Shown here: piece after piece, positions 499-52,800 of the stretch
Layout: each line of letters starts with the position of its first letter
Numbering within the stretch: position 1 is the stretch's first letter
NCBI GenBank assembly: GCA_024639325.1
Contig: JAHEIO010000009.1
Location: forward strand, 14-64,013
DNA: 64,000 nt
Direction: 5' to 3'
DNA from: Gammaproteobacteria bacterium
GTDB taxonomy: Bacteria > Pseudomonadota > Gammaproteobacteria > Arenicellales > JAANXG01
Position numbers and translations under genes: made by a program
Notes under the pieces: generated by a model
The model's database searches: none
Seen by the model: only the letters and a program-made list of their open reading frames with translations
What the model was told of the DNA's origin: nothing

Positions 499-615
499 TG
501 CTAATAGTAAGGGGGCACGATACAAAACACCGCTCTGGCGCAAGTGTTCTAAGCTGGTTAAGTATTGTGTCCCCTGTGAATTAAATACTATGAATAACAA
601 TGAAGGACACGGGGC

Positions 616-993: not shown

Positions 994-1152
994 ATTTTCC
1001 TAGGCTGAATGAGAAAAGTCGTCAGGAACCATTTCAGGGCTCCGAGGAATTGGATTCAATGCATGATGACGCCGCCGAGCTGGAGCAAGTCTGCCCAATT
1101 TCGGTGACGATTCCGGCGCGGATTCATAGATGCTGTATGTCAAGGGGGCCGC

Positions 1153-1782: not shown

Positions 1783-1920
1783 CTCATTTTGAAGCCAGAA
1801 CATGCGTTCCGTTTTCGCTTTGTAAATGCATATTTCACCCATTTGGGTGAGGATATTTTTGGATTTCAATGGTAGCTTTCATCGTACCTGTAATCTGTCT
1901 GAATCCATGGAGGGATAAGG

Positions 1921-3171: not shown

Positions 3172-3255
3172 GGAATGAGGCGCACTAAATACCCCACGTC
3201 CGGATATTAGCCCTCTAACGGTAGCCGTTCTCGGTATTGTCAGGTAGTGTTTCGT

Positions 3256-36177: not shown

Positions 36178-36197
36178 TACGCTCCTTCCAGGCCCTA

Positions 36198-36225
36198 CCG
36201 ACCGGGCAGCACGATGCCCGGTCGG
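36198..36225 (+). other. intercistronic stem-loop between the SBP and ATPase genes
   Basis: ccgaccgggc - agcacgat - gcccggtcgg is a perfect 10-bp stem (11 bp if a36208 pairs with t36215). There is no U tract. Confidence 0.6.
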
Positions 36226-36259
36226 GGACGCCTAAAGCCTGCTCAATAATCTTTCTCCC

Positions 36260-37345
36260 ATGCCGCCGGAACCGATACTTCGCCTTGAAAATATCGTCAA
36301 GCGCTTCGGCGCCTTTACGGCGCTCCACCATATTGATCTGGAAATCGATGAAGGCGAGTTTCTGACCATAGTCGGGCCGTCCGGCTGCGGTAAAACCACC
36401 CTGATCCGACTGCTGGTTGGAATCGATGAACCGACAGAAGGCCGAATCTGGTTGCGCGACAAGCGCATAGAAAAAGTGCCCGCAAATCTGCGGCCGACCT
36501 GCATGGTGTTTCAGTCGCTGGCGCTGTTCCCGCATCGTTCCGTGGGAGAAAACATAGAATTTCCATTGAAGATTCGCGGTGAGACTGCGTCTCGGCGCAA
36601 GGAACGGGCGCTAGAGCTGCTCGACCTGCTTCATTTGCCCCACGATTTCTATGACAAAAGGATCAACCAGTGCTCGGGCGGAGAGCGTCAGCGGATTGCG
36701 CTGGCACGGGCGTTGGCGTTCGATCCGGAAATCTTGTTCTTCGACGAACCGCTTTCAGCACTGGATTTCCGCTTGCGCAAAAAACTGGAAAAGGAACTCA
36801 AGGATCTTCACGAACGCACGGGCAAAACTTTCGTGTACATTACCCACAGCCTGGAAGAGGCGATGGTCATGTCAGACCGAATCGCCATCATGAGACAGGG
36901 GCGCTTCGAGCAGATCGCCGTGACGGACGAGATTTATGCGCGTCCGATCAGCAGGTTCGTGGCCGAGTTCATGGGCGAGGTGAATCTGTTCGACGTGGAG
37001 GGAACGGCTTCGGGCGGCCTGCGCGGGCGAGGTGTGGAAATACAAGCCAACGCCACGGGTGGGGGTACGGAGCTCACTTTGCCGCAAGGGACGCAAGGCG
37101 CCCTGATGGTGCGTCCGGAGTCGGTGCGATTTCTCCACCCGGGCCAAACCGCGGATTTTATCGTGCGGGGGATTCTACGCGCGTCCTACGCGCTTGGTTC
37201 CCGCACGCAGTACAAGGTCGAATCCTCCGAAGGAATCGAACTCGCGGTGGAAAAGCTCAGGCAGGACCGGTTTATGGGAAACGTGGGGGACGAGGTCGTG
37301 CTGGGTTTCGATATGCAGAACACGCATATGATCAGGGAGCGCTAG
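36260..37345 (+). CDS. ABC transporter ATP-binding protein (PotA-like, with C-terminal TOBE-like domain)
   Basis: Walker A GPSGCGKTT, signature CSGGERQR, Walker B ILFFDEPLSALD. 361 aa. Confidence 0.9.
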   Translation: MPPEPILRLENIVKRFGAFTALHHIDLEIDEGEFLTIVGPSGCGKTTLIRLLVGIDEPTEGRIWLRDKRIEKVPANLRPTCMVFQSLALFPHRSVGENIEFPLKIRGETASRRKERALELLDLLHLPHDFYDKRINQCSGGERQRIALARALAFDPEILFFDEPLSALDFRLRKKLEKELKDLHERTGKTFVYITHSLEEAMVMSDRIAIMRQGRFEQIAVTDEIYARPISRFVAEFMGEVNLFDVEGTASGGLRGRGVEIQANATGGGTELTLPQGTQGALMVRPESVRFLHPGQTADFIVRGILRASYALGSRTQYKVESSEGIELAVEKLRQDRFMGNVGDEVVLGFDMQNTHMIRER

Positions 37346-37349
37346 CGGT

Positions 37350-38204
37350 TTGGAACGTTCAGACCGCAAAATCGGCTTTCTGAGCGCCGTTCCGATCACC
37401 GTGATCCTGATGCTCAGCTTCACGGCGCCTCTGCTGGTGGTCCTGCTGTTTTCCGTGATGCCTCCGAAGGTGTTTACCCTTGCTCACGTGCCGGACTTTT
37501 CGTCCTACGGCGTGCTCTTCAGCCAGGGCTACTACCGGTCCCTGCTCTGGTCCCTTGGCACGGCGCTGGCGGCAACGGTCCTGTTGTTTCTGATTTGCTG
37601 GCCGCTGGCTTTTGCCATGGCCAAGGTGTTCAAGGGATTCACTCTGTTCATTACCGTCGCCGTGGTAATCACCCTGTTCGTGTCCGAGAATATCAGGTTG
37701 TTCGGTTGGGTTCTTACCCTGATGAAGGGGGGGTTGATCGAAGGGCATCTCCGGGCATGGGTGGGCTGGAGTTTCGAGGGCGCGCTCTACAACGTTCCCG
37801 TGATCATCTTCGGACTGGTTTACGTCTATTTTCCGTTCATGCTGTTTCCTCTGGTCCAGGGGATTTCAATGGTCCCGGATGACGCGCGCCAGGCGGCGGC
37901 GGACCTGGGCGCAACCAGACGGCAGATATTCTGGGAAGTCGATCTACCGCTGTCGGCGCCGGGCATCGTCATCGGATCGCTGCTGACATTCGTGCTGGGT
38001 GCGGGGGCACTGGCCGAATCCAAGCTGCTTGGCGGTCAGGCGGTTATCGTTATCGCCGATGAGATCGAAACGGCTTTCACCTACGGTCAGAACTGGCCTT
38101 TGGGATCGGCCTTATCGATCATACTCATCATTATTATCGGGTCTTTGGCGGTGTTCGGGGTCAGCCGGGTGGATCTGGACAAGATAATGGGCAGGCGGCG
38201 CTGA
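37350..38204 (+). CDS. ABC transporter permease (PotB-like)
   Basis: 284 aa with 6 TM segments and an EAA-type loop DDARQAAADLGATRRQIFWEV. TTG start 4 nt after the upstream stop. Confidence 0.85.
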   Translation: MERSDRKIGFLSAVPITVILMLSFTAPLLVVLLFSVMPPKVFTLAHVPDFSSYGVLFSQGYYRSLLWSLGTALAATVLLFLICWPLAFAMAKVFKGFTLFITVAVVITLFVSENIRLFGWVLTLMKGGLIEGHLRAWVGWSFEGALYNVPVIIFGLVYVYFPFMLFPLVQGISMVPDDARQAAADLGATRRQIFWEVDLPLSAPGIVIGSLLTFVLGAGALAESKLLGGQAVIVIADEIETAFTYGQNWPLGSALSIILIIIIGSLAVFGVSRVDLDKIMGRRR

Positions 38205-39016
38205 TGCGGATCGGCCGAGCGACACGGATTGCACTCTATCTCTATGGCGTTCTTGTCATAGCGTTTCTGTATCTTCCTCTCCTGTCAGTGGGATTTGCTT
38301 CGGTGTCCAAGGCGCGGTACCTGACATTTCCCATAAAACGCTACGCTTTTCAGTGGTACGGCAAGGCGCTGGAGAGCTACACCGTCCAGGATCTGCTGTG
38401 GACGTCGTTGAGCATTGCCGGCATCGTGACCGTGATTAGCATGATCGTCGGTTTTTTCGGTGCCTTGGCGTTCGCCAGGTATCAGTGGCGTTTTCGCGGC
38501 GTGTTCCAGAAGCTCATCCTGTTGCCCATCTTTTTCCCCCAGGCCGTCCTTGGGCTGGCCTTGTTGATGTGGTTCAACTCGATTGGCATCATTCCGGACT
38601 GGAAGACGGCGGTGGTGGCTCATCTCGTCTGGATATCGCCGATTGCGACGCTGGTCATCGCAATTCGTGCGTACAGTTTTGATCCCGCGCTTGAAGAGGC
38701 CGCCCGCGACATGGGAGCCTCGACCTGGGTGGTATTGAAGGAGGTAACCGGACCGCTGCTGATGCCGGGTGTGATTTCGGCGGGATTGTTTTCATTCCTG
38801 TTGAGCTGGGGAAACTTCCCTTTGTCATTGTTTACAACCGGGGCCGATTCAACATTGCCGGAATGGCTTTATGCCAAGATGGTGTCGGGTTATTCCCCGC
38901 TGGTGCCCACCGTGGGCATACTTTCCATCGCGACGTCGATGATACTCTTGATCGTCGCGTTTACTATTTACTGGTTCGTCCGCTCGGCTCGCGAAAGGGG
39001 TGCGCGGATCATTTGA
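38204..39016 (+). CDS. ABC transporter permease (PotC-like)
   Basis: 270 aa with 6 TM segments and an EAA-type loop LEEAARDMGASTWVVLKEV. The ATG overlaps the upstream TGA by 1 nt. Confidence 0.85.
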   Translation: MRIGRATRIALYLYGVLVIAFLYLPLLSVGFASVSKARYLTFPIKRYAFQWYGKALESYTVQDLLWTSLSIAGIVTVISMIVGFFGALAFARYQWRFRGVFQKLILLPIFFPQAVLGLALLMWFNSIGIIPDWKTAVVAHLVWISPIATLVIAIRAYSFDPALEEAARDMGASTWVVLKEVTGPLLMPGVISAGLFSFLLSWGNFPLSLFTTGADSTLPEWLYAKMVSGYSPLVPTVGILSIATSMILLIVAFTIYWFVRSARERGARII

Positions 39017-39038
39017 CACCAATTACGGAGGTGCTGAT

Positions 39039-39818
39039 ATGTTGACATCCATCAAGGATCGTTCGGTCATCGTTACCGGCGGTTCCAAAGGTATAGGTAA
39101 GGGCATCGCCCAGGTGTTTGCCGCGCAGGGGGCCAAGGTCATGATCGCCGCGCGGGGCGAAGTGGCCGGCGCCGCCGCCGCCGCCGAATTACAGGCGGCC
39201 GGTGGAACGGCGGATTTCTGCCGGTGCGACGTCTCCGACTGGGACTCCGTGCAGCACCTTGTGGACAGGACGGTTGACGCTTTCGGCGGACTCGACGTCA
39301 TGTGTGCGAACGCCGGGGCCTTTCCCCAGACCAAAATGATCGATATGGATCCCGAGGAGTGGGACGACGTCATGGCTACTAATCTCAAGAGCGCATTTCT
39401 GTGCGTCAAGGCCTGTATCCCGCAGTTCGACAAAGCGGGCGGAGGCCGAGTAGTCTTGACGTCTTCCATTACCGGTCCGGTTACGGGCTATCCCGGTTGG
39501 TCGCACTACGGTGCATCGAAATCCGGACAGCTGGGTTTTTTGAAAACCGCGTGCATGGAACTGTCAAAATACAACGTTACCATCAACGCGGTGATGCCGG
39601 GCAACATCTACACCGAGGGGCTGAAGGATCTGGGCCAGGATTATCTGAACACCATGGCGGCCTCAATTCCGCTCAAGCGGCTCGGCGACGTCAAGGATAT
39701 TGGCAACGCCGCTCTGTTCTTCGCCTCTGACGAAGCGGGGTACATCACCGGCCAGACCATGGTGGTCGATGGCGGCCAGATCATACCCGAGTCCCTGGAA
39801 GCCATCGAGGAAATCTGA
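39039..39818 (+). CDS. short-chain dehydrogenase/reductase (candidate amino-ketone / amino-alcohol dehydrogenase)
   Basis: GGAGG RBS before ATG 39039. TGGSKGIGKG cofactor motif, NAG, and the catalytic YGASK. Confidence 0.85.
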   Translation: MLTSIKDRSVIVTGGSKGIGKGIAQVFAAQGAKVMIAARGEVAGAAAAAELQAAGGTADFCRCDVSDWDSVQHLVDRTVDAFGGLDVMCANAGAFPQTKMIDMDPEEWDDVMATNLKSAFLCVKACIPQFDKAGGGRVVLTSSITGPVTGYPGWSHYGASKSGQLGFLKTACMELSKYNVTINAVMPGNIYTEGLKDLGQDYLNTMAASIPLKRLGDVKDIGNAALFFASDEAGYITGQTMVVDGGQIIPESLEAIEEI

Positions 39819-39850
39819 CTTCATCACGGATCGTTAGCCGGGATACGACA

Positions 39851-40858
39851 ATGCCAGAAAGTGCCACGCCTTACGATGTAATGATAGAGCGCCTGGGCGT
39901 TCTTGCCAATCAGTCCCTCGGGCTATGGGATTTGCCGGAGGGCGCAACGGCGCGCCTGATCAACGTATCGGAAAATGCCACCTACCTCGTCGAGGCTCCG
40001 AACGGGTTCAAATCGATTCTTCGAGTGCATCGCGAAGACTATCACACACGCAACGCAATCAGTTGCGAGCACGCCTGGTCCAAAGCGCTCGACGAAGAGG
40101 GCGGGGTCCACACTCCGGATATTCTTCCGGGCCGTGACGGCAGCGGCATCCAGACCGCTTCGGTGGATGGTTTACCCGGCGAACGCCACATGGCCATGTT
40201 CGAGTTCCTGGAAGGCGAACATCCCGAAGAGGACGCGGACCACCTGGTGGAGTCGTTCGAGGAATTGGGCGAGATAGCCGCACGGACGCACAATCATTCC
40301 GTGGCATGGGTGCGCCCGGCCAATTTCGAACGGCTCGTTTGGGACCTCGACACCGTATTCGGTCCGCGGGCGTACTGGGGTGACTGGCGAGATGCGCCCG
40401 GCGTAACGGAGCAGATAAAATCGCTGCTCGAGCGGCTTCAGTCCGTCGTCGTTCGGCGCTTGACAGAATTTGGCAAAGGGGCTGAGCGATTCGGCCTGAT
40501 CCACGCCGACATGCGGCTGGCCAACCTGATCATAAGCGACGGAACAACCAGGCTCATCGATTTCGATGATTGCGGGCTGGGTTGGTTCATGTATGACTTC
40601 GCTGCCGGGATCAGCTTCATGGAGGACCATCCACAGATACCCGCTCTGAAGGACGCGTGGGTTCGGGGTTACAGAAAAGTACGCGGGCTGAGCGCCGCAG
40701 ATGAAGATGAGATCGATACCTTCGTCATGCTGCGCCGCCTGGCCCTGCTGGCCTGGATAGGCTCCCATATCGAGGTCGATACGGCAAAGGAGCTTGCACC
40801 CGCATTCGCACCCGTCACGGCGGAGTTGGCGGAAATTTATCTTGCCCATCAGGAATGA
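39851..40858 (+). CDS. APH/choline-kinase-fold phosphotransferase (candidate amino-alcohol kinase)
   Basis: Brenner motif HADMRLANL and the metal-binding IDFDD. 335 aa. It occupies the same position and has the same fold as the amino-propanol kinase of RMM-type BMC loci (established literature). Confidence 0.8.
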   Translation: MPESATPYDVMIERLGVLANQSLGLWDLPEGATARLINVSENATYLVEAPNGFKSILRVHREDYHTRNAISCEHAWSKALDEEGGVHTPDILPGRDGSGIQTASVDGLPGERHMAMFEFLEGEHPEEDADHLVESFEELGEIAARTHNHSVAWVRPANFERLVWDLDTVFGPRAYWGDWRDAPGVTEQIKSLLERLQSVVVRRLTEFGKGAERFGLIHADMRLANLIISDGTTRLIDFDDCGLGWFMYDFAAGISFMEDHPQIPALKDAWVRGYRKVRGLSAADEDEIDTFVMLRRLALLAWIGSHIEVDTAKELAPAFAPVTAELAEIYLAHQE

Positions 40859-40888
40859 GCGATCGCCGCCGAGCGCTTCGACTACCAA

Positions 40889-40914
40889 TGTCAATTCGCC
40901 GCAGTTAGTGTCAA
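40889..40914 (+). promoter_or_regulatory. second pair of direct TGTCAA repeats (20-bp spacing) in the 253-nt gap upstream of the aminotransferase-AldDh-shell genes
   Basis: TGTCAA at 40889-40894 and 40909-40914, in the same orientation as the pair at 34929/34950. Confidence 0.35.
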
Positions 40915-41111
40915 GTTTCAAAGCCGCGCCTGTGCCACGCTAGATCTCGGAATGCATCGAGGCGGCGCCGTCTGGGCACTTTTCGCGGTCACATCACTTC
41001 ATCCTTCGGCAAGCCGTGACCATGCCGCGGCACCTGCGGCAAAGTGCCTTTAACGTCGTCAGGCCGCATCGATGCCGCCGCGCACTGGGTAACGAACCGG
41101 GAGGCAACACC

Positions 41112-42383
41112 ATGAGCGAAGCAAAACTCGAATTCCTGGATAGATCGAGGGCATTCTGGAATCCCGGGAAGACGCAGGATTGGCAGGACATGGGCGTCGA
41201 CCTCGTGATCGACCGGCGGGAGGGATATTACCTGTTCGATATGGATGGACGGCGCCTTATCGATCTGCATTTGAATGGAGGCACGTACAATTTGGGCCAT
41301 CGGAATCCTGAACTGGTGGAGGCGCTGAAGGCCGGCAGTGCCCGTTTCGATATGGGTAATCACCATTTCCCCGCACTTGCCCGCACCGCGCTGGCCGAAG
41401 CGCTTGCAGCCTGCGCACCGGCACCGAATATGGTGTACACCGCGTACGGTTCGGGTGGTGGTGAAGCCATCGATATTGCCATCAAAACCGCCCGCCACGC
41501 CAAGCAAAGACGCAAGATCGTGTCCATCGTCAAGGCCTACCACGGGCACACGGGTCTGGCGCTGAAAACCGGTGACGACCGGTTTTCCAAACTGTTTCTG
41601 TCAGAGGATACGCTGGGTGAGTTCGTGCAGGTCCCGTTCAACGACCTCAATGCCATGGAAGATGCCCTGCGCGGGCGGGACGTCGCAGCCGTAATCATGG
41701 AAACCATCCCGGCAACCTACGGTTTTCCGATGCCGCAGGAGGGTTATCTGCCCAATGTCAAGAAGCTCTGCGAAAAGTACGATGCCCTGTACATTGCCGA
41801 CGAGGTTCAGACGGGCCTGATGCGATGCGGTGAGCTCTGGGCATGCACGAAATACGGCATCGAGCCGGACATCATGGTGACGGGCAAGGGCATCGGCGGC
41901 GGCATGTATCCGATCGCCTGCACCTGTATCGGTGAGCATTGCGGCGGCTGGCTGACTGAAGATGGATTCGGCCACATCTCCACCGGCGGCGGCGCCGAAC
42001 TCGGTTGCATCGTGGCGATGAAAGTCCTCGAGATCGTGCAGCGCCCGGAAGTGAGGACCATGGTTCGATACGTTTCCGACTACATGCGCGCGGGGCTGGA
42101 CCGGATCATGACCGAGTACCCCGACTTCTTCATTGGGATCCGTCAGCACGGCGTCGTGATGGGCCTCGAGTTCAATCACGAGCAGGGAGCAAAACCGGTG
42201 ATGAAAAACCTATACGACAACGGCGTGTGGGCTATTTTTTCGACCCTCGATCCACGCGTGCTGCAGTTCAAGCCAGGCCTGCTCATGACCCAGGCCGACT
42301 GTGAAGAAGTATTGCGGCGGGTCGAGATCGGCATCGGTCTCGCCCGGGATGAAGTCATGGGCCGCCACAGGAAGAGCGCCTGA
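41112..42383 (+). CDS. class-III aminotransferase-fold PLP enzyme (candidate amino-alcohol-phosphate phospho-lyase)
   Basis: Start ATG 41112 (MSEAKLEF). ADEVQTGLMRCG and VTGKGIGGG (PLP-Lys region). About 423 aa. Phospho-lyases of amino-alcohol phosphates share this fold. Confidence 0.8.
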   Translation: MSEAKLEFLDRSRAFWNPGKTQDWQDMGVDLVIDRREGYYLFDMDGRRLIDLHLNGGTYNLGHRNPELVEALKAGSARFDMGNHHFPALARTALAEALAACAPAPNMVYTAYGSGGGEAIDIAIKTARHAKQRRKIVSIVKAYHGHTGLALKTGDDRFSKLFLSEDTLGEFVQVPFNDLNAMEDALRGRDVAAVIMETIPATYGFPMPQEGYLPNVKKLCEKYDALYIADEVQTGLMRCGELWACTKYGIEPDIMVTGKGIGGGMYPIACTCIGEHCGGWLTEDGFGHISTGGGAELGCIVAMKVLEIVQRPEVRTMVRYVSDYMRAGLDRIMTEYPDFFIGIRQHGVVMGLEFNHEQGAKPVMKNLYDNGVWAIFSTLDPRVLQFKPGLLMTQADCEEVLRRVEIGIGLARDEVMGRHRKSA

Positions 42384-43954
42384 TGGAACCCCAAGCGAGG
42401 ACCCTGGTCGATATATCGGGCAGCCACGCCGCGCTGGCGGGACGCGCCGACATGGTGCTGGAAAGGGCGCGCTGGGCGGCGGAAGTTTTCCAGCGTTATG
42501 ATCGTGAGTCGACCATGGCGATAGCCGATGCCGTTGCCGCGGCGGCACACGATAGCGCCGAAAGATTCGCCGACTGGGCGGTGCGGGAAACGGGATTCGG
42601 CGTTGCTGCACACAAGAAACTTAAGAACCAGTTGACGTCCCGGCCTTTGGTGGATTTTTATCGAAACGACGACTACGTCAATCCGCGCATCGACGAGGCG
42701 CGAAAGATCGTCGAGATCCCCCGGCCCGCCGGCGTAATCCTGGCGCTTACTCCTTCGACCAACCCCATAGCCACGCTCAACTACAAGGTTCTGATCTCGC
42801 TGATGACGCGCAACGCGATCGTTATCAGCCCGCATCCGGCGGCGCGCGAATGCAGCGTCGATGCGGCCCGCGCACTCGGCGAGGCCGCGATGGATGCGGG
42901 CGCCCCCGACGGCGCCATCCAGATCATAGAGAATCCCGGCATTCCTCTAGTCGAAGAACTCATGGTGTCGCCCAAGACCTCGGTGATCCTCGCCACCGGC
43001 GGCACGGCGATGGTGCGTTCCGCCTACTCGTCGTCGAATCCGGCAATTGGCGTCGGACCCGGCAACGCACCGGTGTTCGTTGATTCAACCGCGGACATCG
43101 ACAAGGCGGCAAAGCGTATCGTGGAGTCGAAATCTTTCGACAACTCGGCGTTGTGTACGAACGAGAGCGTCCTGATTACCCTGGAAGACGTCGATGCGCG
43201 CTTGCGCCGTTCGTTCAAGCAGGCAAAGGCTTACATTTGCGACGCCGACGACGTCGACCGCTTGCGACGGTATTTGTTTCACGATCGTGGATTCAATATC
43301 GAATGCATTGGTCGGGATGCCGCGTGGATTGCACAGGAATGCGGTATCCGTGTACCCGACGGCACGCTGGTTCTGCTGGCGCCTATTGCGCAGATTGGCG
43401 TTGAGGAGCCGCTTTCGAGGGAGAAACTGTGTCCGGTGCTTGCCTATCATGTGGTCAAGCGCCGCAACCAGGCGATCACGCAGGCTCGCGCGGTGCTGCG
43501 CCTTGCCGGCGCCGGCCACTCCGCCGCCGTGCACGCCATGGACGAGCAGGTGGCGATGGCATTTGCGTCCGCGGTGGAGGCTTATCGGGTCGTCGTGAAT
43601 ACCCCCTGTACCCAGGGCGCCGCCGGTTTTCAGACCGCGCTGGCACCTACTTTCACCGTGGGCACCGGATTTTACGGCCGCAGTTCAATTGGAGAGAATA
43701 TAGGGCCAGGACACCTCGTGCACTGGACTCGCCTGGCCTATAACTCGGATGCGTCTGAATATTTCGGCAACTACCGCGGGTTGAAACCGGGTTTCAGCGG
43801 CCCGCTGCCCGAGGCGCCCTCCGACGGTGTGCCGGGATCCAACGGATACCGGGCGAGACGCGCGGAAGCCGATGCCGGTGTTTTTTCCGGCGTAACGCGT
43901 GAGGAGTTGCGGCGCATGATTGCCGAAGAACTTCGCGCGGTGCTTAGGAAGTAG
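42383..43954 (+). CDS. CoA-acylating aldehyde dehydrogenase (EutE/PduP-type) with C-terminal encapsulation-peptide-like tail
   Basis: ILATGGTAMVRSAYSSSNPAIGVGPGNAPV and the catalytic-Cys segment FDNSALCTNES. A Pro/Gly-rich linker is followed by the amphipathic TREELRRMIAEELRAVLRK at the C-terminus. The ATG overlaps the upstream TGA. Confidence 0.9.
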   Translation: MEPQARTLVDISGSHAALAGRADMVLERARWAAEVFQRYDRESTMAIADAVAAAAHDSAERFADWAVRETGFGVAAHKKLKNQLTSRPLVDFYRNDDYVNPRIDEARKIVEIPRPAGVILALTPSTNPIATLNYKVLISLMTRNAIVISPHPAARECSVDAARALGEAAMDAGAPDGAIQIIENPGIPLVEELMVSPKTSVILATGGTAMVRSAYSSSNPAIGVGPGNAPVFVDSTADIDKAAKRIVESKSFDNSALCTNESVLITLEDVDARLRRSFKQAKAYICDADDVDRLRRYLFHDRGFNIECIGRDAAWIAQECGIRVPDGTLVLLAPIAQIGVEEPLSREKLCPVLAYHVVKRRNQAITQARAVLRLAGAGHSAAVHAMDEQVAMAFASAVEAYRVVVNTPCTQGAAGFQTALAPTFTVGTGFYGRSSIGENIGPGHLVHWTRLAYNSDASEYFGNYRGLKPGFSGPLPEAPSDGVPGSNGYRARRAEADAGVFSGVTREELRRMIAEELRAVLRK

Positions 43955-43963
43955 GCGGACAGC

Positions 43964-44575
43964 ATGGCGGAACTGCGTTCGTTCATTTTTATAGATCAGT
44001 TGCAGCCGCAGACGCTGGCCTATATCGCGACCTGGATGCGGGGTTCATTGCCGCGTCGAAACATGGCCGCACAAATTATCGAGGTATCGCCCGGACTGGA
44101 TATCGAGGCGCTGACCGATGTTGCACTCAAGGGCGCCAACATCAAAGTCGGACTGCTCGTAGTCGAGCGCCAGTATGGGTACTTGGAGTTTCACTCCCGA
44201 TCCACCGCCGAGGTCAAGGCCGGCGCGCAGGCCCTGCTGGATGCGCTGGGCGCGAGCGTCGAGGATGCCACGCCACCACAGATTCTCGGTTCCAAGGTCG
44301 TTACTCGCGTCGACCACCAGCATGCCTTTCTGATCAATCGCAACAAGCTTGGTTCCATGGTGCTTGGCAACGAGTCGCTGTACCTGCTGGAGTGTCGTCC
44401 CGCGTCTTACGCCATTTTGGCCTGCAACGAAGCGGAGAAAGAAGCCAACATCAAAGTCATCGACTACCGAATGATCGGCGCCAACGGGCGGCTCTATCTC
44501 TCCGGCGACGAGGCCGAGATCCGAAATGCGCGCAGCGTAGCCGAGGCTGTACTTCACGAAGGCGGGGTGGCCTAG
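43964..44575 (+). CDS. tandem BMC-domain shell protein (BMC-T type) 1
   Basis: 203 aa with two BMC-like halves (IIEVSPGLDIEALTDVALKGANIKV... and LLECRPASYAILACNEAEKEANIKV...). The N-terminus MAELRSFIFIDQLQPQ is as I recall for RMM-locus BMC-T proteins. Confidence 0.8.
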   Translation: MAELRSFIFIDQLQPQTLAYIATWMRGSLPRRNMAAQIIEVSPGLDIEALTDVALKGANIKVGLLVVERQYGYLEFHSRSTAEVKAGAQALLDALGASVEDATPPQILGSKVVTRVDHQHAFLINRNKLGSMVLGNESLYLLECRPASYAILACNEAEKEANIKVIDYRMIGANGRLYLSGDEAEIRNARSVAEAVLHEGGVA

Positions 44576-44578
44576 GAA

Positions 44579-45028
44579 ATGGTCGACGAACTGCGCCAGG
44601 CGATCCGAAGCATTCTGCTCGAGGAGCTTGCTGCACATGGAGTCGGGCCGACTCCGCAGTCCGCGCCGGGGATTCACGTCGAGGAGGTCGAGATCAATTC
44701 CGACGTAGACCTGGCACAATTCGTTCGACGCTTGCTGCAGCTCGCCCGCGACGGCGGCGCACTCTCGGCAATCGAATCGGGGCGCCACGTATTCAGGTTG
44801 CGCACAGCCAGTGCCCCGCAGCGGTCGGTGCAACCGCCGGTGGCATCCAGTCGAACGCCGGTTGGCGGTACGATGACGTTCGACGCGGGCCTCATCACTG
44901 AAAAACAGGTTCGCAATCTTCCTGAAAATATCTCAGTGGTAAGGGTGGGCGGCAGCGTGCGGCTCACGCCGCTGGCCAGCGATGCCATGCGGCGCGCGGG
45001 GATTAAAATAGAAAAGGTGACATCATGA
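44579..45028 (+). CDS. BMC-associated protein of unknown function with N-terminal encapsulation-peptide-like helix
   Basis: 149 aa: an amphipathic MVDELRQAIRSILLEELAA, then a Pro/Ser-rich linker, then a ~50-aa C-terminal module LITEKQVRNLPENISVVRVGGSVRLTPLASDAMRRAGIKIEKV. The start is 3 nt after the BMC-T stop and the end overlaps the BMC-P start (ATGA). Confidence 0.7.
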   Translation: MVDELRQAIRSILLEELAAHGVGPTPQSAPGIHVEEVEINSDVDLAQFVRRLLQLARDGGALSAIESGRHVFRLRTASAPQRSVQPPVASSRTPVGGTMTFDAGLITEKQVRNLPENISVVRVGGSVRLTPLASDAMRRAGIKIEKVTS

Positions 45029-45267
45029 TTCGTGGACGCATAACGGGCCGAATCTGGTCCAGCAAACACATCGAAACCCTGCCCAACGGAGCGCTTCTTG
45101 AAGTGACTCTCGATACCGGCGGCAGTCTGATCGCGCTGGATCCGCTCGGATGCGCCGAAGGTGAAGCCGTTCTCGTGACTCAGGGCTCGGTTGCCGCGGG
45201 CTACTTTACCAAGTCCAAAGCACCGATAGATGCGCTGATCATCGGGTCTATCGATGAACAGGGCTGA
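45025..45267 (+). CDS. BMC-P pentameric vertex protein (EutN/CcmL family)
   Basis: 80 aa. MIRGRITGRIWSSKHIETLPNGALLEV...ALDPLGCAEGEAVLVTQGSVAA...PIDALIIGSID is collinear with EutN/CcmL. Confidence 0.9.
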   Translation: MIRGRITGRIWSSKHIETLPNGALLEVTLDTGGSLIALDPLGCAEGEAVLVTQGSVAAGYFTKSKAPIDALIIGSIDEQG

Positions 45268-45324
45268 CCCAGGCGCAGCTATATTGTCAACGGCCAACAG
45301 GCCACAACTTTAGGAGAACACAAC

Positions 45325-45609
45325 ATGTCGAATCAGGCTATCGGAATGATCGAGACCCGCGGCTACGTTCCGGCGCTGGCCAGCGCCGACGCGATGGTCA
45401 AAGCAGCCAATGTCGAAATCGTATCACGCAATGAAGTCGGAGGCGGACTGGTATCCGTAGTGATCAAGGGCGACGTCGGTGCCGTCAAGGCGGCGACGGA
45501 AGCCGGCTCCGAGGCGGCTAATCAGGTTGGCGAAGTGGTCGCAGTACACGTTATTCCCAGGCCCCACCAGGACCTGAACCAGCATTTCAGTCTGGCGGCC
45601 GGCAAGTGA
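45325..45609 (+). CDS. BMC-H hexameric shell protein (PduA/EutM/CcmK-like)
   Basis: 94 aa. Canonical AIGMIETRGYVPALASADAMVKAANVEIV...GGGLVSVVIKGDVGAVKAATEAG..A. AGGAG RBS. Confidence 0.95.
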   Translation: MSNQAIGMIETRGYVPALASADAMVKAANVEIVSRNEVGGGLVSVVIKGDVGAVKAATEAGSEAANQVGEVVAVHVIPRPHQDLNQHFSLAAGK

Positions 45610-45642
45610 CGCCGGGTTGGGTCGGGAGAGGCGAGTGCTGAC

Positions 45643-46272
45643 ATGACCGAGTTGAGGGTCTATCTGCCAATCCACGATCTGCAATCCCAGTTCTCCGCTT
45701 ATCTGAGCACGCCGATGCGGGCCAGGGGATATCCGCCTTTCGAAGGACAGCACAGTCTTATCATCGAGGTGTCTCCGGCGCTCGCCATACACCGAATATC
45801 AGACCTCGCCCTGAAGGCGGCGCCCGATATGGAACCGGGCATTCTGTTCACTGAAAGACAGTACGGATTGCTGGAACTGCATTCTTCGGATCGGGATGAG
45901 CTGGATGCGGCGGGCAAGGCGATCCTCAAGGGTATAGGCGCAATTGCAGGAGACCAGCTCGCGCCCGCCATCCTGTTCGAAGACATCATCGAGAATTTAT
46001 CGGACCAGCACGCAATCATTTTGAACCGCTCCCGCTCTGCCTCCATGCTGGTCCCGGGCTCGTCGCTGCTTCTTTACGAAATGAGCCCCGCGCTGTTCGC
46101 CTGTGTCGCCGCCAACGAAGCGGAACGCGCCGCGCCTGCAGCGATCCTCAACGACGTTCAGATGATGGGGGTGTCGGGTCGCATCTTCATGTCCGGCGAT
46201 ACCGGTGACCTGACCAGGGCGCGGGATGCCATTACGCGGACGCTGAAAGCGGTCAAGGGGCGCAAGAAATGA
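45643..46272 (+). CDS. tandem BMC-domain shell protein (BMC-T type) 2, paralog of 43964..44575
   Basis: 209 aa. It shares MxELR...I..LQ.Q..AY..T.MR, IIEVSPAL, ERQYGLLELHS, DQHAIILNR and NEAER with BMC-T 1. 13 of the first 27 residues are identical by hand alignment. Confidence 0.8.
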   Translation: MTELRVYLPIHDLQSQFSAYLSTPMRARGYPPFEGQHSLIIEVSPALAIHRISDLALKAAPDMEPGILFTERQYGLLELHSSDRDELDAAGKAILKGIGAIAGDQLAPAILFEDIIENLSDQHAIILNRSRSASMLVPGSSLLLYEMSPALFACVAANEAERAAPAAILNDVQMMGVSGRIFMSGDTGDLTRARDAITRTLKAVKGRKK

Positions 46273-46943
46273 GCAACTGGAAAAACGCTTACAGGTCATT
46301 TTATTACGCGAACGCCGACGAGCCGGAAGACCCGGTTCTGGCGCCGCGCGAGACCGCGCTGCTGGTGATCGATATTCAGAATACCTACATGGAGGTGCCC
46401 GGCGATGCCGCCGAGGCAGCACGATGGGGCCCGTTTTTTTCCAGGATGCACGAAACGGTTATTCCCAATACGGCTGCGTTGATCGAATTGTGCAGAGCAA
46501 GGAACATCGAGGTCATCTTCGCGCGCATTGCTTGCCTTACGGAAGACGGCCGGGATCGGTCTCTGAGCCAGAAGAAACCCGGCTTCAATTACCTGTTGCT
46601 GCCGAAGGACCGCGAGGACAGCCAGCTTGTGCCCCAACTACAGCCCAAAGGCGACGAGATAGTCATGCTGAAGACCACGGACAGCGCTTTGACAGGTTCG
46701 AACCTGCGGTTGATCCTGAACAACATGGGCATTCGAAACGTCGTCTTGGCGGGTATTTTTACGGATCAATGCGTCAGCAGCACAGTGCGCAGTCTCGCTG
46801 ACGAAAGCTTCAACGTACTGGTGGTCGACGACTGCTGCGCCGCGGCGACAATGGAACTGCACGACCACGAACTGGAAATCATAAATATGATCTACTGTCA
46901 CGTGGTTCAGTCCGAGGATATCCGGTCTTTCATCCGTAATTGA
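46269..46943 (+). CDS. isochorismatase-family cysteine hydrolase
   Basis: 224 aa. Candidate triad elements are LLVIDIQN (Asp), LKTTDSA (Lys) and FTDQCVSST (Cys). ATGA overlap with the BMC-T 2 stop. Confidence 0.85.
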   Translation: MSNWKNAYRSFYYANADEPEDPVLAPRETALLVIDIQNTYMEVPGDAAEAARWGPFFSRMHETVIPNTAALIELCRARNIEVIFARIACLTEDGRDRSLSQKKPGFNYLLLPKDREDSQLVPQLQPKGDEIVMLKTTDSALTGSNLRLILNNMGIRNVVLAGIFTDQCVSSTVRSLADESFNVLVVDDCCAAATMELHDHELEIINMIYCHVVQSEDIRSFIRN

Positions 46944-46981
46944 TGGCAAAAGCTGAAAAGATCCGTTAAAACCATGCCGGC

Positions 46982-48181
46982 ATGCCACGCGCGGAAGCAA
47001 AAATCATCGGCCTTGTCAGCACGGGACATTTTTTCAGCCATTTCTACCTGCTGCTGCTGCCGCCGCTGTTCCCCATTTTGCGCGACTATTATGGCGTCGG
47101 TTTTACCGAACTCGGTTTTGCACTGACCGCCTACAGTATCGCGACGGCCTGTACCCAGGTCCCTGCCGGATATATCGTAGACCGCCATGGTGCACGAAGG
47201 CTGTTGATCGCCGGACTGCTGCTCGAATCTTTCGCCATCGCCGGCATCGGTTTGTTCAATACGTTCAACGCGTTCATCGTGATGCTGGTGGTCGCCGGGG
47301 TAGCCAATTCCGTGTACCACCCCGCCGACTATTCGATACTGAACCGGGCGGTGAATAAATCGCGCATGGGCCGCGCATTTTCAATACATACGTTCGCCGG
47401 GTACCTTGGTGAAGCCGTCGCTCCAGTTACGATCCTTGCCCTCATGGTTTGGGTGGACTGGCACACGGCTCTGATCGTGTGCGGCATCGGAGGTGGTATC
47501 GCCGCCGTATTCCTGGCGTTCAATTCCCCTTTGCTGGACGCCGCGCCGAATCCCGATGAATGTCCTCAGGCCGGCGCGAACGGTGGAGGTCTGCGCTTGC
47601 TGATATCCCTGCCCATCGTCATGGGGCTGCTTTTTTTCATAGGCATATCCATCACCGGCCGCGGCATCACCGGTTTTGGCGTCAGCGCAATGACCGAACT
47701 CCACGCGATTTCCCTGGCCAGTGCGGGTGCCCTGTTGTCCTGCTACCTGTTCGCCATGCCCGTGGGTGTGTTGGTGGGAGGCTGGGTCGCGGACAGTACA
47801 TCGCAGCACGGCCGCATGGCGGCCGTATGCTTCAGCGTGGTTTGTTTTGTCATGTTCGCCGTTGCCGCATTGCCGCTGCCGCCGACAGTCATAGGGATGC
47901 TGTTCGGAATTGCCGGTTTGTTTTCCGGAATGGTGGCGCCGTCGCGTGACATGCTGATACGTTCCATTACGCCGCCCAAAGAAACCGGCAAGGTGTTTGC
48001 ATTTGTCTCCACCGGGTATAACATCGGCGGCATTCTGGGGCCTCCGTTGTTCGGGTATTTGCTCGATCACTACTCGCCCCGGTCACTGTTCTGGGTGGTC
48101 GGTGTGGCGGCCCTGATGACGATGCTGACCGTGATGTTTGCCGCCGGGCGGCACATACGTCCCGCGGCGGCGAATGGATGA
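46982..48181 (+). CDS. MFS transporter
   Basis: 399 aa with about 12 TM segments and an MFS loop GYIVDRHGARRLL. Confidence 0.85.
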   Translation: MPRAEAKIIGLVSTGHFFSHFYLLLLPPLFPILRDYYGVGFTELGFALTAYSIATACTQVPAGYIVDRHGARRLLIAGLLLESFAIAGIGLFNTFNAFIVMLVVAGVANSVYHPADYSILNRAVNKSRMGRAFSIHTFAGYLGEAVAPVTILALMVWVDWHTALIVCGIGGGIAAVFLAFNSPLLDAAPNPDECPQAGANGGGLRLLISLPIVMGLLFFIGISITGRGITGFGVSAMTELHAISLASAGALLSCYLFAMPVGVLVGGWVADSTSQHGRMAAVCFSVVCFVMFAVAALPLPPTVIGMLFGIAGLFSGMVAPSRDMLIRSITPPKETGKVFAFVSTGYNIGGILGPPLFGYLLDHYSPRSLFWVVGVAALMTMLTVMFAAGRHIRPAAANG

Positions 48182-48188
48182 AAAACGA

Positions 48189-49628
48189 ATGAGTTTGAGA
48201 AGAATAGGCCGAATCGTACTGCTGAGTGTATTCACTGCCCTGGTGGTTGGGGGCTGCGCAACCAACCCGGTGACCGGAAAGCAGAATTTCGTCCTCATGA
48301 GTGAGGATCAGGAGATCGATCTGGGAAAGCAGTATCACGGGCAGGTCATGAAGCAGTACAAAGAGTACCGCGACCCGGAGCTGACCGCGCTGGTGAACAA
48401 GCTGGGTGGGGAGCTTGCCGCAAACAGCCATCGCGGTGATCTAAATTTTCATTTCACCGTGCTGGACAGCCCCGAGGTCAACGCGTTTGCGCTCCCCGGC
48501 GGATATATCTATATCACGCGTGGCATCGTTGCCTACATGAACAGTGAGGAAGAGCTGGCCGGAGTGCTCGGCCATGAGATCGGGCATGTAACGGCCCGGC
48601 ACAGCGTTCGGCAGCACGCCGCTTCCACAACCGCCGGGCTGCTCGGTGCGGTTGCCACTGTCGCCACCGGCAGCCAGGGGGTCGGGCAGTTGTCCGGCCA
48701 GCTGGGCGGCGCGCTGGTAAGCGGGTATGGTCGCGGCCACGAGCTGGAGGCGGACCGTCTCGGCGCCGAGTACCTGGCCCGCACCGGATATGATCCCGAT
48801 ATGATGCTGGAGGTCGTGGGCATACTCAAAGACCAGGAAGAATTCGAGATCCAGCGGGCAAAGGAGGAGGGGCGCCCGCCCCGTATCTATCACGGTGTGT
48901 TTGCCAGCCACCCCCGAAATGACCAGCGGCTCCAGGAAGTCGTCAAGGCGGCAGAAAAATACAGTAACCCGCAGGCCAAACGAACGGATCCCGATACGTT
49001 CATCACCATGCTCGAAGGCGTTACCTTCGGTGACAGCGAAGAGCAGGGCATCGTTCGGGGGAATCGCTTCTATCACCTCCCCCTGGACTTCCGCATCGAG
49101 TTTCCGTCCGGTTGGCGAATACAGAACACTCAGGATCAACTCCTTGCGGTCAAACCGGATGATAGCGCCGTATTCCTGGTAATACTCGACAGCCGGGCCG
49201 GGCGCGAGTCAGCCGGGGCGTATCTGCGGCGAAATTTCGACAACCTGAGACAGGGTAAGGTGCTCGATGCGGACAGTTATGCGGGCCTGATACAGGGCAA
49301 GAGTCCCTTCGGCACCGGCACCATCAGGGTGGCTGCCCGCCTCCACGACGCCAACGTGTTCGTGGTACAAGGTGCAGCGAGGGGGAGTATCCCGGAAGAT
49401 GCGTTCTTCGATACGGTGAGGAGCATCCGCCGCCTCGATTCTTCGGAACGCGCGCTCGCAGTGGAAAAGCGGATCAAGGTGATTCGGGTCCGGGCCGGAG
49501 ACACATTTGCATCGCTGGCCAGGCGAAGCGACCTTGGGGTATACGCAGAAGCACAGCTTCGCCTGATGAATGGCATGTATCCTGACGGTCAACCGCGGGC
49601 GGGGCAACTTATCAAGATTGTGCAGTAG
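48189..49628 (+). CDS. M48 family metalloprotease lipoprotein with C-terminal LysM domain
   Basis: Start ATG 48189 (MSLRRIGRIVLLSVFTALVVGGC, lipobox). Zinc motif HEIGHV. C-terminal LysM-like IRVRAGDTFASLARR...GQLIKIV. Confidence 0.85.
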   Translation: MSLRRIGRIVLLSVFTALVVGGCATNPVTGKQNFVLMSEDQEIDLGKQYHGQVMKQYKEYRDPELTALVNKLGGELAANSHRGDLNFHFTVLDSPEVNAFALPGGYIYITRGIVAYMNSEEELAGVLGHEIGHVTARHSVRQHAASTTAGLLGAVATVATGSQGVGQLSGQLGGALVSGYGRGHELEADRLGAEYLARTGYDPDMMLEVVGILKDQEEFEIQRAKEEGRPPRIYHGVFASHPRNDQRLQEVVKAAEKYSNPQAKRTDPDTFITMLEGVTFGDSEEQGIVRGNRFYHLPLDFRIEFPSGWRIQNTQDQLLAVKPDDSAVFLVILDSRAGRESAGAYLRRNFDNLRQGKVLDADSYAGLIQGKSPFGTGTIRVAARLHDANVFVVQGAARGSIPEDAFFDTVRSIRRLDSSERALAVEKRIKVIRVRAGDTFASLARRSDLGVYAEAQLRLMNGMYPDGQPRAGQLIKIVQ

Positions 49629-49803
49629 GAATCGCGCCTAACTCCTTCAAACAAAAGGCAGATTATACATCTAAGTGTGCTATTATTCTTGTATATACCG
49701 GCAACTTGGGGTACACCTGAGATAGTGAGAATCTGGAAGGACCACTCAAAAATCAAGAAATTCTATTCCAGGTACCCGTTGAACCTTGTGGGGTGAATAC
49801 GAT

Positions 49804-52800
49804 ATGACAACCCGGGCGTGGGGTTGTTTTGGCTTGGTCAAGTGCGGCTCGCGCCTCGTGGGCCTTTTGGCCTTGGCGTCTACGGGCCCTGCGTTCGGCC
49901 TGGGTTTGGGCGAAATGCGCGTGCAATCGGGCCTCGGTGAGCCCCTTGTAGCGGAAATCGAGTTATCGACGGCTTCAGCCATTGAGCTTTCGACACTCGA
50001 AGTGACGCTCGGAGCGGAGGATGTGTTCAATAACGCCGGTGTGATCCGTCACCAGTTCCTGACACAACTCGAATTCGAAGTGATCGAATCCACGCCACCC
50101 GTGATCAGGGTCACGTCGGTTCAGCCCATAAGCGAACCGTTCCTTCATATCATCATTCGAACCCGTTGGGAATTCGGCATGCTGCTGAGTGAGTACACTG
50201 CGCTGCTGGACCCGCCGTTGTATGCGCAGCAGCAGCCGGGCTCGATAAGCACGCCCGTTGTTCTCGAAGAACCGGATACGGGCCAGGCCGTCGAGCCGGC
50301 TTCGATCCCGCAAGCGGAGGTGTCTGGGATGCCGGCTGGCAGTTTTCAGTACGGTCCAGTGGCTCCCGGCGACAATCTTTGGGGTATCGCATCGCTAGTC
50401 GACACCGCCGGCCTCGATGCCAACATATTCCAGGTGATGATCGCTCTGTTGAGACAAAACCCGGATGCTTTCATAGACAATAACATCAACCAACTGAAAA
50501 GCGGCGAAACGCTAACGCTGGAGGACTACCAATCGATCCTGCTGATCTCGAAGGCGGAGGCCGGCAGGTCTTACAAGGCCCAGATCGAACGGTGGCAAGG
50601 GGCGGGGCCGAGCACCGTGATCGCTGCGCGGCCTGACGCGGCGCCGCCGCGGTCTGGACTGGTTCAGGCGCAAGCAGAAGCCCCGGCCGAGACCGCGACA
50701 CCGGAGGTGGTGGAAGTCGAGCCTTCGATGGAACAAGGCGCGGCAGGGGCCGCGGACCAGGACGCCGCGGATATGCAAGCCAAAGCGCAACCAACCGACC
50801 CGGATAAATACGTATTCAAGATCACACCTCCGGCATCCGACGCGGCGGGCGATGCATCCGAGGTAGCGGGCGAAGTGGATATGGAGGTCGCAGCCATGAG
50901 GGCGGCAATTGACAGGGAGATCGCCGCTTTGCGACAGCAGGTCGTGAAGCTCGAAAACGAGCAGCGGGTATCGAAAGCCCTTTCCACTAAAGAAGGTGAC
51001 ATAGAATCGATAAAAGCGGAGGCTGAAAAGGAAATAACCACGCTCAGGGAACAGATTGGCTTCCTCAAACAGGCTGGGGCTGACCAGGAAATACTGGCGT
51101 TGCGCGGACAGCTCGCCGCCCTCAGGCGGCAGGAAACGATGACGAAAGAGGCTTCCAGCGCTTCCGCCGCGTTGGCGGAAGCTGAGCAGGAAATCCGCGA
51201 ATTGCGTGCGCAGGTTGCGGCTCTGGCAAAAAGCGACTCCGCCGAGGCAGTGCCGGGGCAGAAGGACTTCAGCGACCTGAGCGATCAGGTAGATGTTTCG
51301 CAATCACCCGCGGTTGCGGCAACTGCTTCGCCCAATGTCAAAGTTGAAATCGACTCGATCAGAGCGGGAGCGAACCAGCAGATTACCGCCATGCGTGAAC
51401 AGATGGAGGCCATGCGCGCGGAAATGGGACAGCTTCTGGCCGCCCAGAAGCTTCGCGACGCGCAAAACACGGAACTCGAGAAGCGGATCGCGTCCCTGGC
51501 GGGCATGCTCGAAGGCAGGGTCGAATCGAGTACGCTTGCATCGTTGACTGCATCCGGGAACGGCAGCTCGAGCGCCCAGACGAAATCGCGCGCAGCGGCA
51601 GGTTCAGACAGTGACGGTAAATCCGTTTGGGAAAAGTGGTTCGACAAGCTGCCTGAAGACGACGAGTCCCGTATCGCGCTCGCCGCCGGGATTCTGCTGA
51701 TCTTGCTGTTGCTCTGGCTGCTCATTCGTCGGCATAGGGCCTTGATGAGAATGGAACAGAGCATTTTGATGGCTAGCGGAAACATGGATGAAGCAGCCAG
51801 CCAGTTATCGGAGTTCAAATCGAAAAAGCCCCGTTACCTGAGCGATCTGAGCATCGCCGGAATGGGAAGGATGGAAGCGGCCGAGGTCGACCCGTTGGCC
51901 GAAGCCGAGGTGTATCTGGCGTATGGACGAGCCGCGCAGGCGTTAGAGGTGCTAAAGGAAGCGTCTAGCCGGAATCCGGATCGCGAGGAGCTGAAGCTGA
52001 AGCTTCTGGAGGTCTATCAACACCAGGGCGATGTCGACTCCTTCGACGATCTCGTAGCGGAGATGGATCTAAGAGAGGAAGACATGGACCAGGCGACATG
52101 GAGCAAGGTTGTCGAGTTGAAGCTCAAAATGCAGGAGAAAACCCCCTCGCAAACGCCTGAACTGGATGAGCAAAACGACTCGCAGGAAAGCGAATCCACA
52201 CCAAGCGAATCCACACCAAGCGAATCCACACCAAGCGAATCCGCGGACCGGGAACTGCCGCTCGACGAAAGTATTGAAAAGCAGAATTCGCAAGAAAAAA
52301 TATCGGCTTCCGAATTACCTCGAGACGTACTCGCAAAAGCGTCCGTTCCCGTCGATCCAGCGCTGCGACCGTTTCCCGAGCCGGATGAGAATGCGCGTGT
52401 CGGTGAAGAAGTTTTGGGTACGCTCGGGCGGGCCGATGAGTCCGGCAGCGGTTCGCGTTCCGAAACCATACCTCCGGGCGCAAGCTCGGACGATTCGGAC
52501 ATGATGAACTTCGCTACCTCGGAATCCTCGGAGTTGGATTTCGATCTGGAGTCGGATCTGGAAAAGCCGCTCGACCCCGAGTCCGATTCCGCCGCTCCGG
52601 CTGCAGCCGATGAATCGAAGCAAACTTTCACTCTGGAATCCAGCGACACGGAGGAAGAGGGCGGCGATTTGAACGAAGTGTTGATCAAGACCGAACTTGC
52701 CGAGGCATATATGAATATGGGCGACAGGGATGAGGCGCTTCGTATACTCAGAGAGATCGTCGAAGTCGCAAACCCGGATGAGAAAATGCAGATTAACGAG

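Follow-up and report, generated by a model that had tools for sequence, protein, structure and literature searches.

Why does an aldehyde dehydrogenase that is encoded directly ahead of bacterial microcompartment (BMC) shell genes continue for 70 residues beyond its catalytic domain, and what is the role of the short helix with which it ends? The question is raised by a stretch of 64,000 nucleotides (hereafter the window) from a gammaproteobacterium of the Arenicellales (GenBank assembly GCA_024639325.1, contig JAHEIO010000009.1), which carries the gene of a CoA-acylating aldehyde dehydrogenase (AldDh) of 523 amino acids (aa). An earlier note, made from the DNA letters, had proposed that the tail of this enzyme is an encapsulation peptide (EP) of BMC cargo. 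The predicted helix, the disordered tether, the conservation and the shell-gene context described below all support this proposal, and we consider it highly probable that the AldDh tail is a C-terminal EP, loading the dehydrogenase into the microcompartment encoded downstream.

Architecture of the C-terminal extension

The class of the enzyme was assigned from the ranking of its solved relatives in a search of the PDB, where the E-values ranged from 1e-82 to 3e-89. The best relatives are 5j78, an acetylating acetaldehyde dehydrogenase (2.9e-89), 3k9d from Listeria (8.6e-87) and the N-terminal domains of AdhE (~1e-85), while structures of PduP are far weaker relatives (5jfl, E 1.3e-46). Because the EutE/AdhE-type structures match far better than PduP, AldDh belongs to the AdhE/EutE-like branch and, by this ranking, is a type I BMC aldehyde dehydrogenase; the catalytic Cys258 is kept. 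All PDB alignments, which start at about residues 22-27, stop at residues 452-455, so that the protein is extended at the C-terminus only (residues 454-523) and has no extension at the N-terminus. According to Sutter 2021 (PMC8217296), type I (AdhE/EutE-like) enzymes carry the EP at the C-terminus and type II enzymes carry it at the N-terminus. A C-terminal position is therefore what is expected for an enzyme of the type I clade, and the statement of the earlier note that the terminus depends on the BMC type has to be amended, since it is not merely the BMC type that matters.

As a measure of conservation along the protein we used the frequency of the commonest residue, averaged by segment, in the window AldDh together with 79 complete orthologs. 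These were taken from 80 related loci, all from Proteobacteria, collected in a scan that retained one genome per species. By this measure the catalytic domain (residues 17-453) reaches 0.77. Translation of 43895-43954 on the plus strand gives TREELRRMIAEELRAVLRK followed by the stop codon, which confirms the tail as it had been read before, and the Pro/Gly/Ser-rich stretch GPLPEAPSDGVPGSNGYRARRAEADAGVFSGV quoted ahead of it is present too. The helix formed by residues 505-523 matches the catalytic domain in conservation (0.71-0.76), and it stands at the extreme C-terminus in all 79 complete orthologs. Specifically, R510 and E516 are invariant, I513 and L517 are kept in 97% and 95% of the sequences, and A514 and R518 in 90%, while positions 509, 512, 520 and 521, all hydrophobic, are occupied by L, I, M, V or A only. 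At the level of sequence, a conserved helix following a hypervariable, length-variable linker is the classic signature of an EP.

The linker itself is less uniform than had been supposed. The poor conservation ascribed to it by the earlier note holds for residues 486-504, with a frequency of 0.33, but not for residues 473-485, at 0.87. The latter, GPLPEAPSDGVPG, form a Pro-rich island with the pattern GPLPxAPxDGVPG, which is the best-conserved part of the extension and exceeds even the catalytic domain (0.87 vs 0.77): G473 and G482 are invariant, and A478 and P479 are present in 99% of the sequences. The spacing between this motif and the core of the helix varies from 19 to 38 residues in 78 orthologs. 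The island occurs only in the clade with at least 60% identity, the more distant relatives P0150, P0151 and P0157 having the helix but not the island; a search of related loci amounting to 1.55 Mb (20,500 open reading frames, ORFs) found it on AldDh only. It is predicted to be unstructured (see below) and we regard it as a candidate short linear binding motif.

Both in the helix and in the Pro-rich island the third codon position is free (0.51) and positions 1 and 2 are conserved, as is the case in two catalytic blocks examined in the same way. Since third positions are free, the constraint acts on the protein and not on an RNA or DNA element. A minus-strand ORF that overlaps the AldDh tail (43771..43986) was discarded as spurious, the codon-position conservation fitting the plus-strand frame.

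The earlier note had suggested AlphaFold as a check for a disordered tail. The AlphaFold2 (AF2) model, a monomer built on an alignment of 31 close sequences, contains instead a helix at residues 506-522, ending one residue before the stop codon, with a predicted local distance difference test score (pLDDT) of 62-84. Ahead of this helix, residues 469-503 have a pLDDT below 50 and no secondary structure, the score of the Pro-rich island being about 32. As for amphipathicity, the 15-mer core of the helix, ELRRMIAEELRAVLR, has an Eisenberg hydrophobic moment of 0.709, which ranks first among the 509 windows of AldDh, and the periodicity peaks near 90 degrees, corresponding to an i/i+4 stripe of L509, I513, L517 and L521.

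The composition of the helix is also that of an EP. Isoleucine, leucine and valine make up 29.4% of it and K, R, D, E, Q and N 52.9%, with 0% proline and no aromatic residues; the family means are 32.4% and 52.6%, respectively. Published AldDh EPs have 35.8 +/- 5.8% and 45.7 +/- 8.1% in these two classes (Aussignargues 2015, PMC4594438), and the helix lies within about one standard deviation of both values.

Shell genes and known encapsulation peptides

More distant relatives of the enzyme, taken as representatives at 50% clustering, provide natural controls. All of the helix-bearing ones (P0150, P0151, P0155 and P0157, 4/4) adjoin shell genes, and shell genes are held by 80/80 close loci. One of them, P0157, which precedes a shell gene of T1 type, ends in ...QDELRRIVLEELKTVMGHR and lacks the Pro-rich island. 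On the other side, an EP-like tail is missing from P0153, a protein of 472 aa that retains the catalytic Cys; its gene lies amid genes for 2-oxoacid dehydrogenase, and the 11.7 kb there contain no shell genes. P0160 (451 aa) likewise lacks the tail, and its locus, L086, has no neighbouring shell genes. This locus, a 5.2-kb metagenome contig from ENA, represents the same pathway in a shell-less form, with an aminotransferase, an AldDh, a kinase and, on the opposite strand, a short-chain dehydrogenase (SDR). Compared with the window, its aminotransferase has 424 aa vs 423 and its kinase 335 vs 335, and only AldDh is shorter, by 72 residues. Among the distant relatives, a small sample, the presence of the helix tracks that of shell genes.

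We then compared the helix with validated EPs, the sequences of which were taken from PMC5405515. A position-specific scoring matrix (PSSM) of the nine-residue core scores the EPs of PduP (IRTILSEQL) and PduD (LRQIIEDVL) at p ~0.001, about 0.1% of random 20-mers of the window reaching those scores. With the same matrix, EutC and E. coli EutE showed no significant similarity to the core. The PduP and PduD peptides of the Salmonella Pdu system, both experimentally validated, share with the window helix the pattern hydrophobic-R-x-hydrophobic-hydrophobic-x-acidic-x-L, borne on an amphipathic helix that is attached through a linker. They differ in being N-terminal, whereas the AldDh helix is C-terminal; PduP is moreover a type II enzyme, and the shell proteins of the two systems differ.

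Closer in kind are the C-terminal EPs of other type I BMC aldehyde dehydrogenases, those of EUT2, GRM1 and others (PMC4594438, PMC8217296), which belong to the same clade, sit at the same terminus after a likewise variable linker, and have a similar length of about 17 residues and a similar composition. Other members of the type I clade, P0187 (...KIKAIVSEVLRQFRS) and P0198 (...VEEIVKRVLLELKK) among them, end in comparable helices. Compared with the usual type I EPs, the helix of the window-type AldDh is far more conserved, with its invariant R510 and E516, and the conserved Pro-rich island of its extension was not seen among the other type I representatives examined.

A third point of comparison is CcmN of the beta-carboxysome. 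In the account of Kinney 2012 given in PMC4594438, its EP likewise consists of an amphipathic helix, about 17 residues long, at the C-terminus, and is preceded by a long linker that varies in length and in sequence; this EP binds the major BMC-H protein, and assembly depends on it. As an assembly protein that is not an enzyme, CcmN is a possible analogue of a 149-aa protein of the window that is described below. It differs from the AldDh helix in serving an anabolic organelle and in the composition of its EP (11.8% aromatics, 5.9% Pro; PMC4594438), and there is no sequence similarity between the two.

In conclusion, the features by which an EP, as defined by Kinney 2012 and Aussignargues 2015, can be recognised in a sequence, namely a position at the very terminus with a length of about 15-20 residues, an amphipathic helix, a poorly conserved linker, the tracking of shell genes and a composition of roughly one third Ile, Leu and Val and one half charged or polar residues without Pro, are all found in the AldDh tail. 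Encapsulation, the binding partner and the orientation and geometry of docking are what we infer from these features by analogy.

The 149-residue protein and what the helix may bind

Between the first BMC-T gene and the BMC-P gene, an ORF is present in 77/77 loci that hold both flanking genes. In the window it encodes the protein of 149 aa mentioned above, for which AF2 predicts a helix at residues 2-19 and two small domains, with low-confidence linkers between them. In the family alignment R6, R10, E15 and E16 of this N-terminus are invariant. The earlier note had pointed to a resemblance between this N-terminus and the AldDh tail, written as (D/E)ELR(R/Q)xI...EEL with a gap of three residues. 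The resemblance exists, but in an ungapped register: residues 509-517 of AldDh (LRRMIAEEL) match residues 9-17 of the 149-aa protein (IRSILLEEL), with the common pattern hydrophobic-R-x-hydrophobic-hydrophobic-x-E-E-L, and the invariant columns coincide. The gapped alignment is unsupported, because the relation appears only with ungapped PSSMs and with a hidden Markov model (HMM) of the 149-aa family.

Specifically, when PSSMs of the two families were run against the 928 six-frame ORFs that the 64-kb window contains, the AldDh tail and the 149-aa N-terminus each retrieved the other as the best non-self match. The HMM of the 149-aa N-termini matches the C-terminal helices of AldDh relatives with E-values of 3.5e-5 and 9.8e-5. 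The reverse search with hmmsearch, in which an HMM of 80 AldDh helices was run against the six-frame ORFs of the window, retrieved AldDh itself only, the 149-aa protein standing at E 9.1. The helix motif, sought in the same 1.55 Mb as the island, was found at the C-termini of AldDhs and at the N-termini of the 149-aa family and nowhere else. Within the operon of the window it is likewise carried by these two proteins only, the aminotransferase-like enzyme being without any terminal extension. The two helices have changed in concert in L082, a divergent locus, where AldDh ends in ...LLREILTEELG and the small protein has ...LVTQILTEELG; the latter is a 97-aa relative (2333..2626) from which the middle domain is missing.

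The 149-aa protein has no match in Pfam or, by sequence or fold, in the PDB. Pfam, searched up to E 10, returned only DUF4129 at 0.11, and a Foldseek comparison of the model with the PDB gave nothing at E <= 0.001 (best 0.08). A profile match among PDB sequences, to a designed repeat protein at E 0.003, was set aside as spurious. The C-terminal domain has the motif ...R-[FL]-TPLA-x-D-x-x-R-x-x-G-I-x-I-ER, and its HMM (window 44867..45025), run against a set of 299 sequences, matches the C-terminal appendage of other type I AldDhs, P0176 at E 8.4e-5 and, more weakly, P0218, P0196 and P0163 at E 0.02-0.05.

Several type I enzymes (P0163, P0171, P0176, P0181, P0196 and P0218) end in such a domain of about 45 aa instead of a helix, with the pattern ...FV.E.D[VI]R.A......I.IGP.T[IL][IV]TP.AR[ED]..., for which Pfam, run on the AldDhs that bear it, reports no family. 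A resemblance of the 149-aa C-terminal domain to the N-terminus of EutQ was considered and is not supported: the match of E. coli K-12 EutQ to the HMM has E 0.15 and falls in the wrong region, and 1254/2000 shuffles reach the pairwise score. The N-terminus of E. coli EutT is weakly similar to the same domain (HMM E 0.018 in an 11-sequence set; 33/2000 shuffles). Taken as a whole, the 149-aa protein is a candidate EP-bearing adaptor or scaffold.

These observations can be joined in a model in which the last 17-19 residues of AldDh would act as an amphipathic helix, held by a flexible tether some 50 residues long and recruiting the enzyme to the lumen of an RMM2/AAUM2-type shell. The stripe formed by L509, M512, I513, L517, V520 and L521, framed by R510 and E516, would dock on the lumen-facing side of a shell protein, in analogy to PduP, PduD and CcmN. 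The most probable partner would be the single BMC-H protein, as suggested by PduA/J/K and CcmK2, and copies of the helix may also associate with one another while the cargo core is assembled. Since the 149-aa protein has the same core motif at its N-terminus, one would expect it either to dock at the same site or to pair with the helix of AldDh.

Some of our results, on the other hand, weigh against reading the tail as an EP. The AF2 model of AldDh is only moderate (mean pLDDT 69.6). The amphipathic pattern stressed by the earlier note is borne out by the 15-mer core but is less extreme than was implied: the moment of the whole 19-mer, 0.447 at 100 degrees, is unremarkable, being reached by 17% of its own shuffles, and what excludes chance for the helix is its conservation and not the amphipathic pattern. 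The helix face is not cleanly apolar, because R510 and E516, both charged and invariant, lie within the hydrophobic arc or border it. The tail-less controls are weak: P0160, which may represent a degenerate or non-acylating paralog, comes from a 5.2-kb contig and has Asp in place of the catalytic Cys258, and the contig of P0161 is too short for a judgement. In the PSSM comparison the next-best random ORF follows closely (15.1 vs 14.9 and 12.7 vs 12.2). Finally, the literature searched, which did not cover the primary papers of Mallette and Kimber, yielded no experiment on an RMM-type EP.

The alternative that survives best is a variant of the EP model, compatible with it and not denying the EP, in which the helix mainly drives the association of cargo with cargo, forming a short coiled coil with the 149-aa helix or with other AldDh tails and nucleating the core before the shell closes. 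The fact that exactly two proteins per locus share the core motif, encoded two genes apart, would fit such a pairing, as would the joint drift of the two helices in L082 and the i/i+4 stripe with its periodicity of about 90 degrees, which is compatible with helix-helix packing. Two alike helices would, however, also be expected if both bind one shell site, and the helix has only about 4.5 turns; as the main function of the tail, we regard this as rather unlikely.

The tail might also be an oligomerisation or regulatory element of AldDh itself, autoinhibitory or filament-forming as in AdhE-like enzymes, and unrelated to the microcompartment. AdhE forms higher-order assemblies, the catalytic domain of AldDh is AdhE-like, and the helix is as conserved as that domain, all of which would agree with an intrinsic role. 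Yet a hypervariable, predicted-disordered tether is unusual for a helix that packs on its own domain, and the solved non-BMC relatives end at the equivalent of residue ~454. In addition, the same motif occurs on a non-enzyme protein within the shell-gene cluster, and in distant relatives the helix tracks shell genes. This makes an intrinsic element very improbable. A membrane-targeting amphipathic helix of the MinD/FtsA type, tethering AldDh to the inner membrane near a transporter, deserves hardly any credence, since the terminal position, the amphipathicity, the net charge of +2 and the transporter genes flanking the operon are outweighed by four acidic residues, with one invariant Glu within the apolar arc, by the lack of aromatics, by the narrow hydrophobic face and by the match of the tail to BMC EPs.

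Taking the tail as an EP, an extended proposal can be put forward tentatively, and it is one that we would not yet favour: the AldDh extension may have two functional parts, and one gene of the locus may specify an adaptor dedicated to assembly. The Pro-rich motif, fixed in the RMM2 clade, would then bind a second partner, and the 149-aa protein could scaffold the enzymes that lack an EP, above all the aminotransferase, as a metabolosome counterpart of CcmN or CsoS2.

The operon and its flanks

The features of the window discussed here are collected in the following table.

Table. Features of the AldDh gene and of the surrounding operon (window positions)
Feature	Coordinates	Strand	Basis or measure
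SDR	39000..39818	+	PF13561, PF00106
APH-family kinase, 335 aa	39851..40858	+	PF01636
Class-III aminotransferase-like enzyme, 423 aa, presumed aldehyde-forming step	41112..42383	+	PF00202
AldDh coding sequence, 523 aa, CoA-acylating type I (AdhE/EutE-like)	42383..43954	+	ORF; Pfam PF00171 Aldedh E 1.8e-25
AldDh catalytic domain, residues ~17-453	42431..43741	+	PDB alignment ends; last predicted strand 448-453
First variable segment of AldDh extension, residues 454-472	43742..43798	+	Frequency 0.41, entropy 2.58 bits
Pro-rich island of AldDh, residues 473-485	43799..43837	+	Frequency 0.87
Hypervariable, length-variable linker of AldDh, residues 486-504	43838..43894	+	Frequency 0.33, entropy 2.95 bits
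Predicted encapsulation peptide of AldDh, residues 505-523, core 509-517 LRRMIAEEL	43895..43951	+	
BMC-T shell protein, tandem BMC domain, RMM T1 type, 203 aa	43964..44575	+	Pfam BMC E 4.8e-9
149-aa protein: N-terminal EP-like helix, middle alpha/beta domain (~33-74), small C-terminal domain (~97-147)	44579..45028	+	
N-terminal amphipathic helix of 149-aa protein, residues 2-19, core 9-17 IRSILLEEL	44582..44635	+	
BMC-P pentamer protein, 80 aa	45025..45267	+	PF03319 EutN_CcmL E 9.3e-18
BMC-H hexamer protein, 94 aa	45325..45609	+	PF00936 E 4.2e-27
Second BMC-T, 209 aa	45643..46272	+	Weak BMC match E 0.19; L090 homolog has PF27545 CsoS1D_N; position conserved in all loci

Homologs of both BMC-T proteins of the window bear PF27545 CsoS1D_N. 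In a tblastn comparison, the order SDR, APH, aminotransferase, AldDh, BMC-T, 149-aa protein, BMC-P, BMC-H, BMC-T was recovered in essentially all 80 loci, the closest of which belongs to a gammaproteobacterial metagenome-assembled genome (97% identity), followed by loci of the Arenicellales. The RMM2/AAUM2 type is described in the supplement of PMC8217296 as proteobacterial and as comprising an SDR, an APH-type kinase, a class-III aminotransferase and an AldDh, together with one BMC-H, one BMC-P and two BMC-T(dp) proteins; the gene content of the RMM/AAUM amino-alcohol microcompartment is also given in PMC4207490. As judged from its genes, the operon of the window matches this catalogued type in content and in order. 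The RMM1/AAUM locus of Mycobacterium smegmatis (Mallette and Kimber, cited in PMC8217296) has the same pathway enzymes and the same shell set (one BMC-H, one BMC-P, two BMC-T), and differs from the window locus in gene order and in host phylum.

The genes are closely packed. The aminotransferase stop overlaps the AldDh start by one base, and the first BMC-T starts only 9 bases after the AldDh stop. Stop/start overlaps were noted at 42381..42385 (aminotransferase/AldDh), 45025..45028 (149-aa protein/BMC-P) and 46269..46272 (second BMC-T/isochorismatase). The overlaps and the 9-base gap suggest translational coupling along the operon.

Both the C-terminal EPs of BMC AldDhs and the RMM2 locus type had already been catalogued. 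What is new beyond the earlier reading is the Pro-rich island, the restriction of the helix to AldDh and the 149-aa protein, and the appendage-like C-terminal domain which the latter shares with other type I enzymes. Above all, the tail bears out the view that the operon (~39000..46272) encodes a complete and probably functional amino-alcohol microcompartment, the core dehydrogenase of which would be addressed to the lumen. The practical value is modest: a conserved C-terminal tag of about 17 residues and a matched N-terminal tag are candidates for loading cargo into RMM-type shells. The Pro-rich motif in the tether and the three-part protein with the same helix are the more interesting leads, and both make the entry of EP-less enzymes into RMM-type metabolosomes directly testable.

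As for the flanks, the region upstream of the operon (35044..39016) contains look-alikes of a periplasmic binding protein, of an ABC ATPase with the Walker A sequence GPSGCGKT and of two permeases. Downstream (46269..48181) lie an isochorismatase-family hydrolase and an MFS transporter, the isochorismatase gene being kept in many, not all, of the related loci. The flanking transporters and the hydrolase may serve substrate uptake and a side reaction. Within 36000..52000 of the window no diol dehydratase genes were found. Such genes do occur in L090, the locus of P0151, where those for the diol dehydratase subunits lie on the minus strand (539..3240), beside an RMM-type operon on the opposite strand; this arrangement is the one originally named RMM2/PDU2 by Axen et al.

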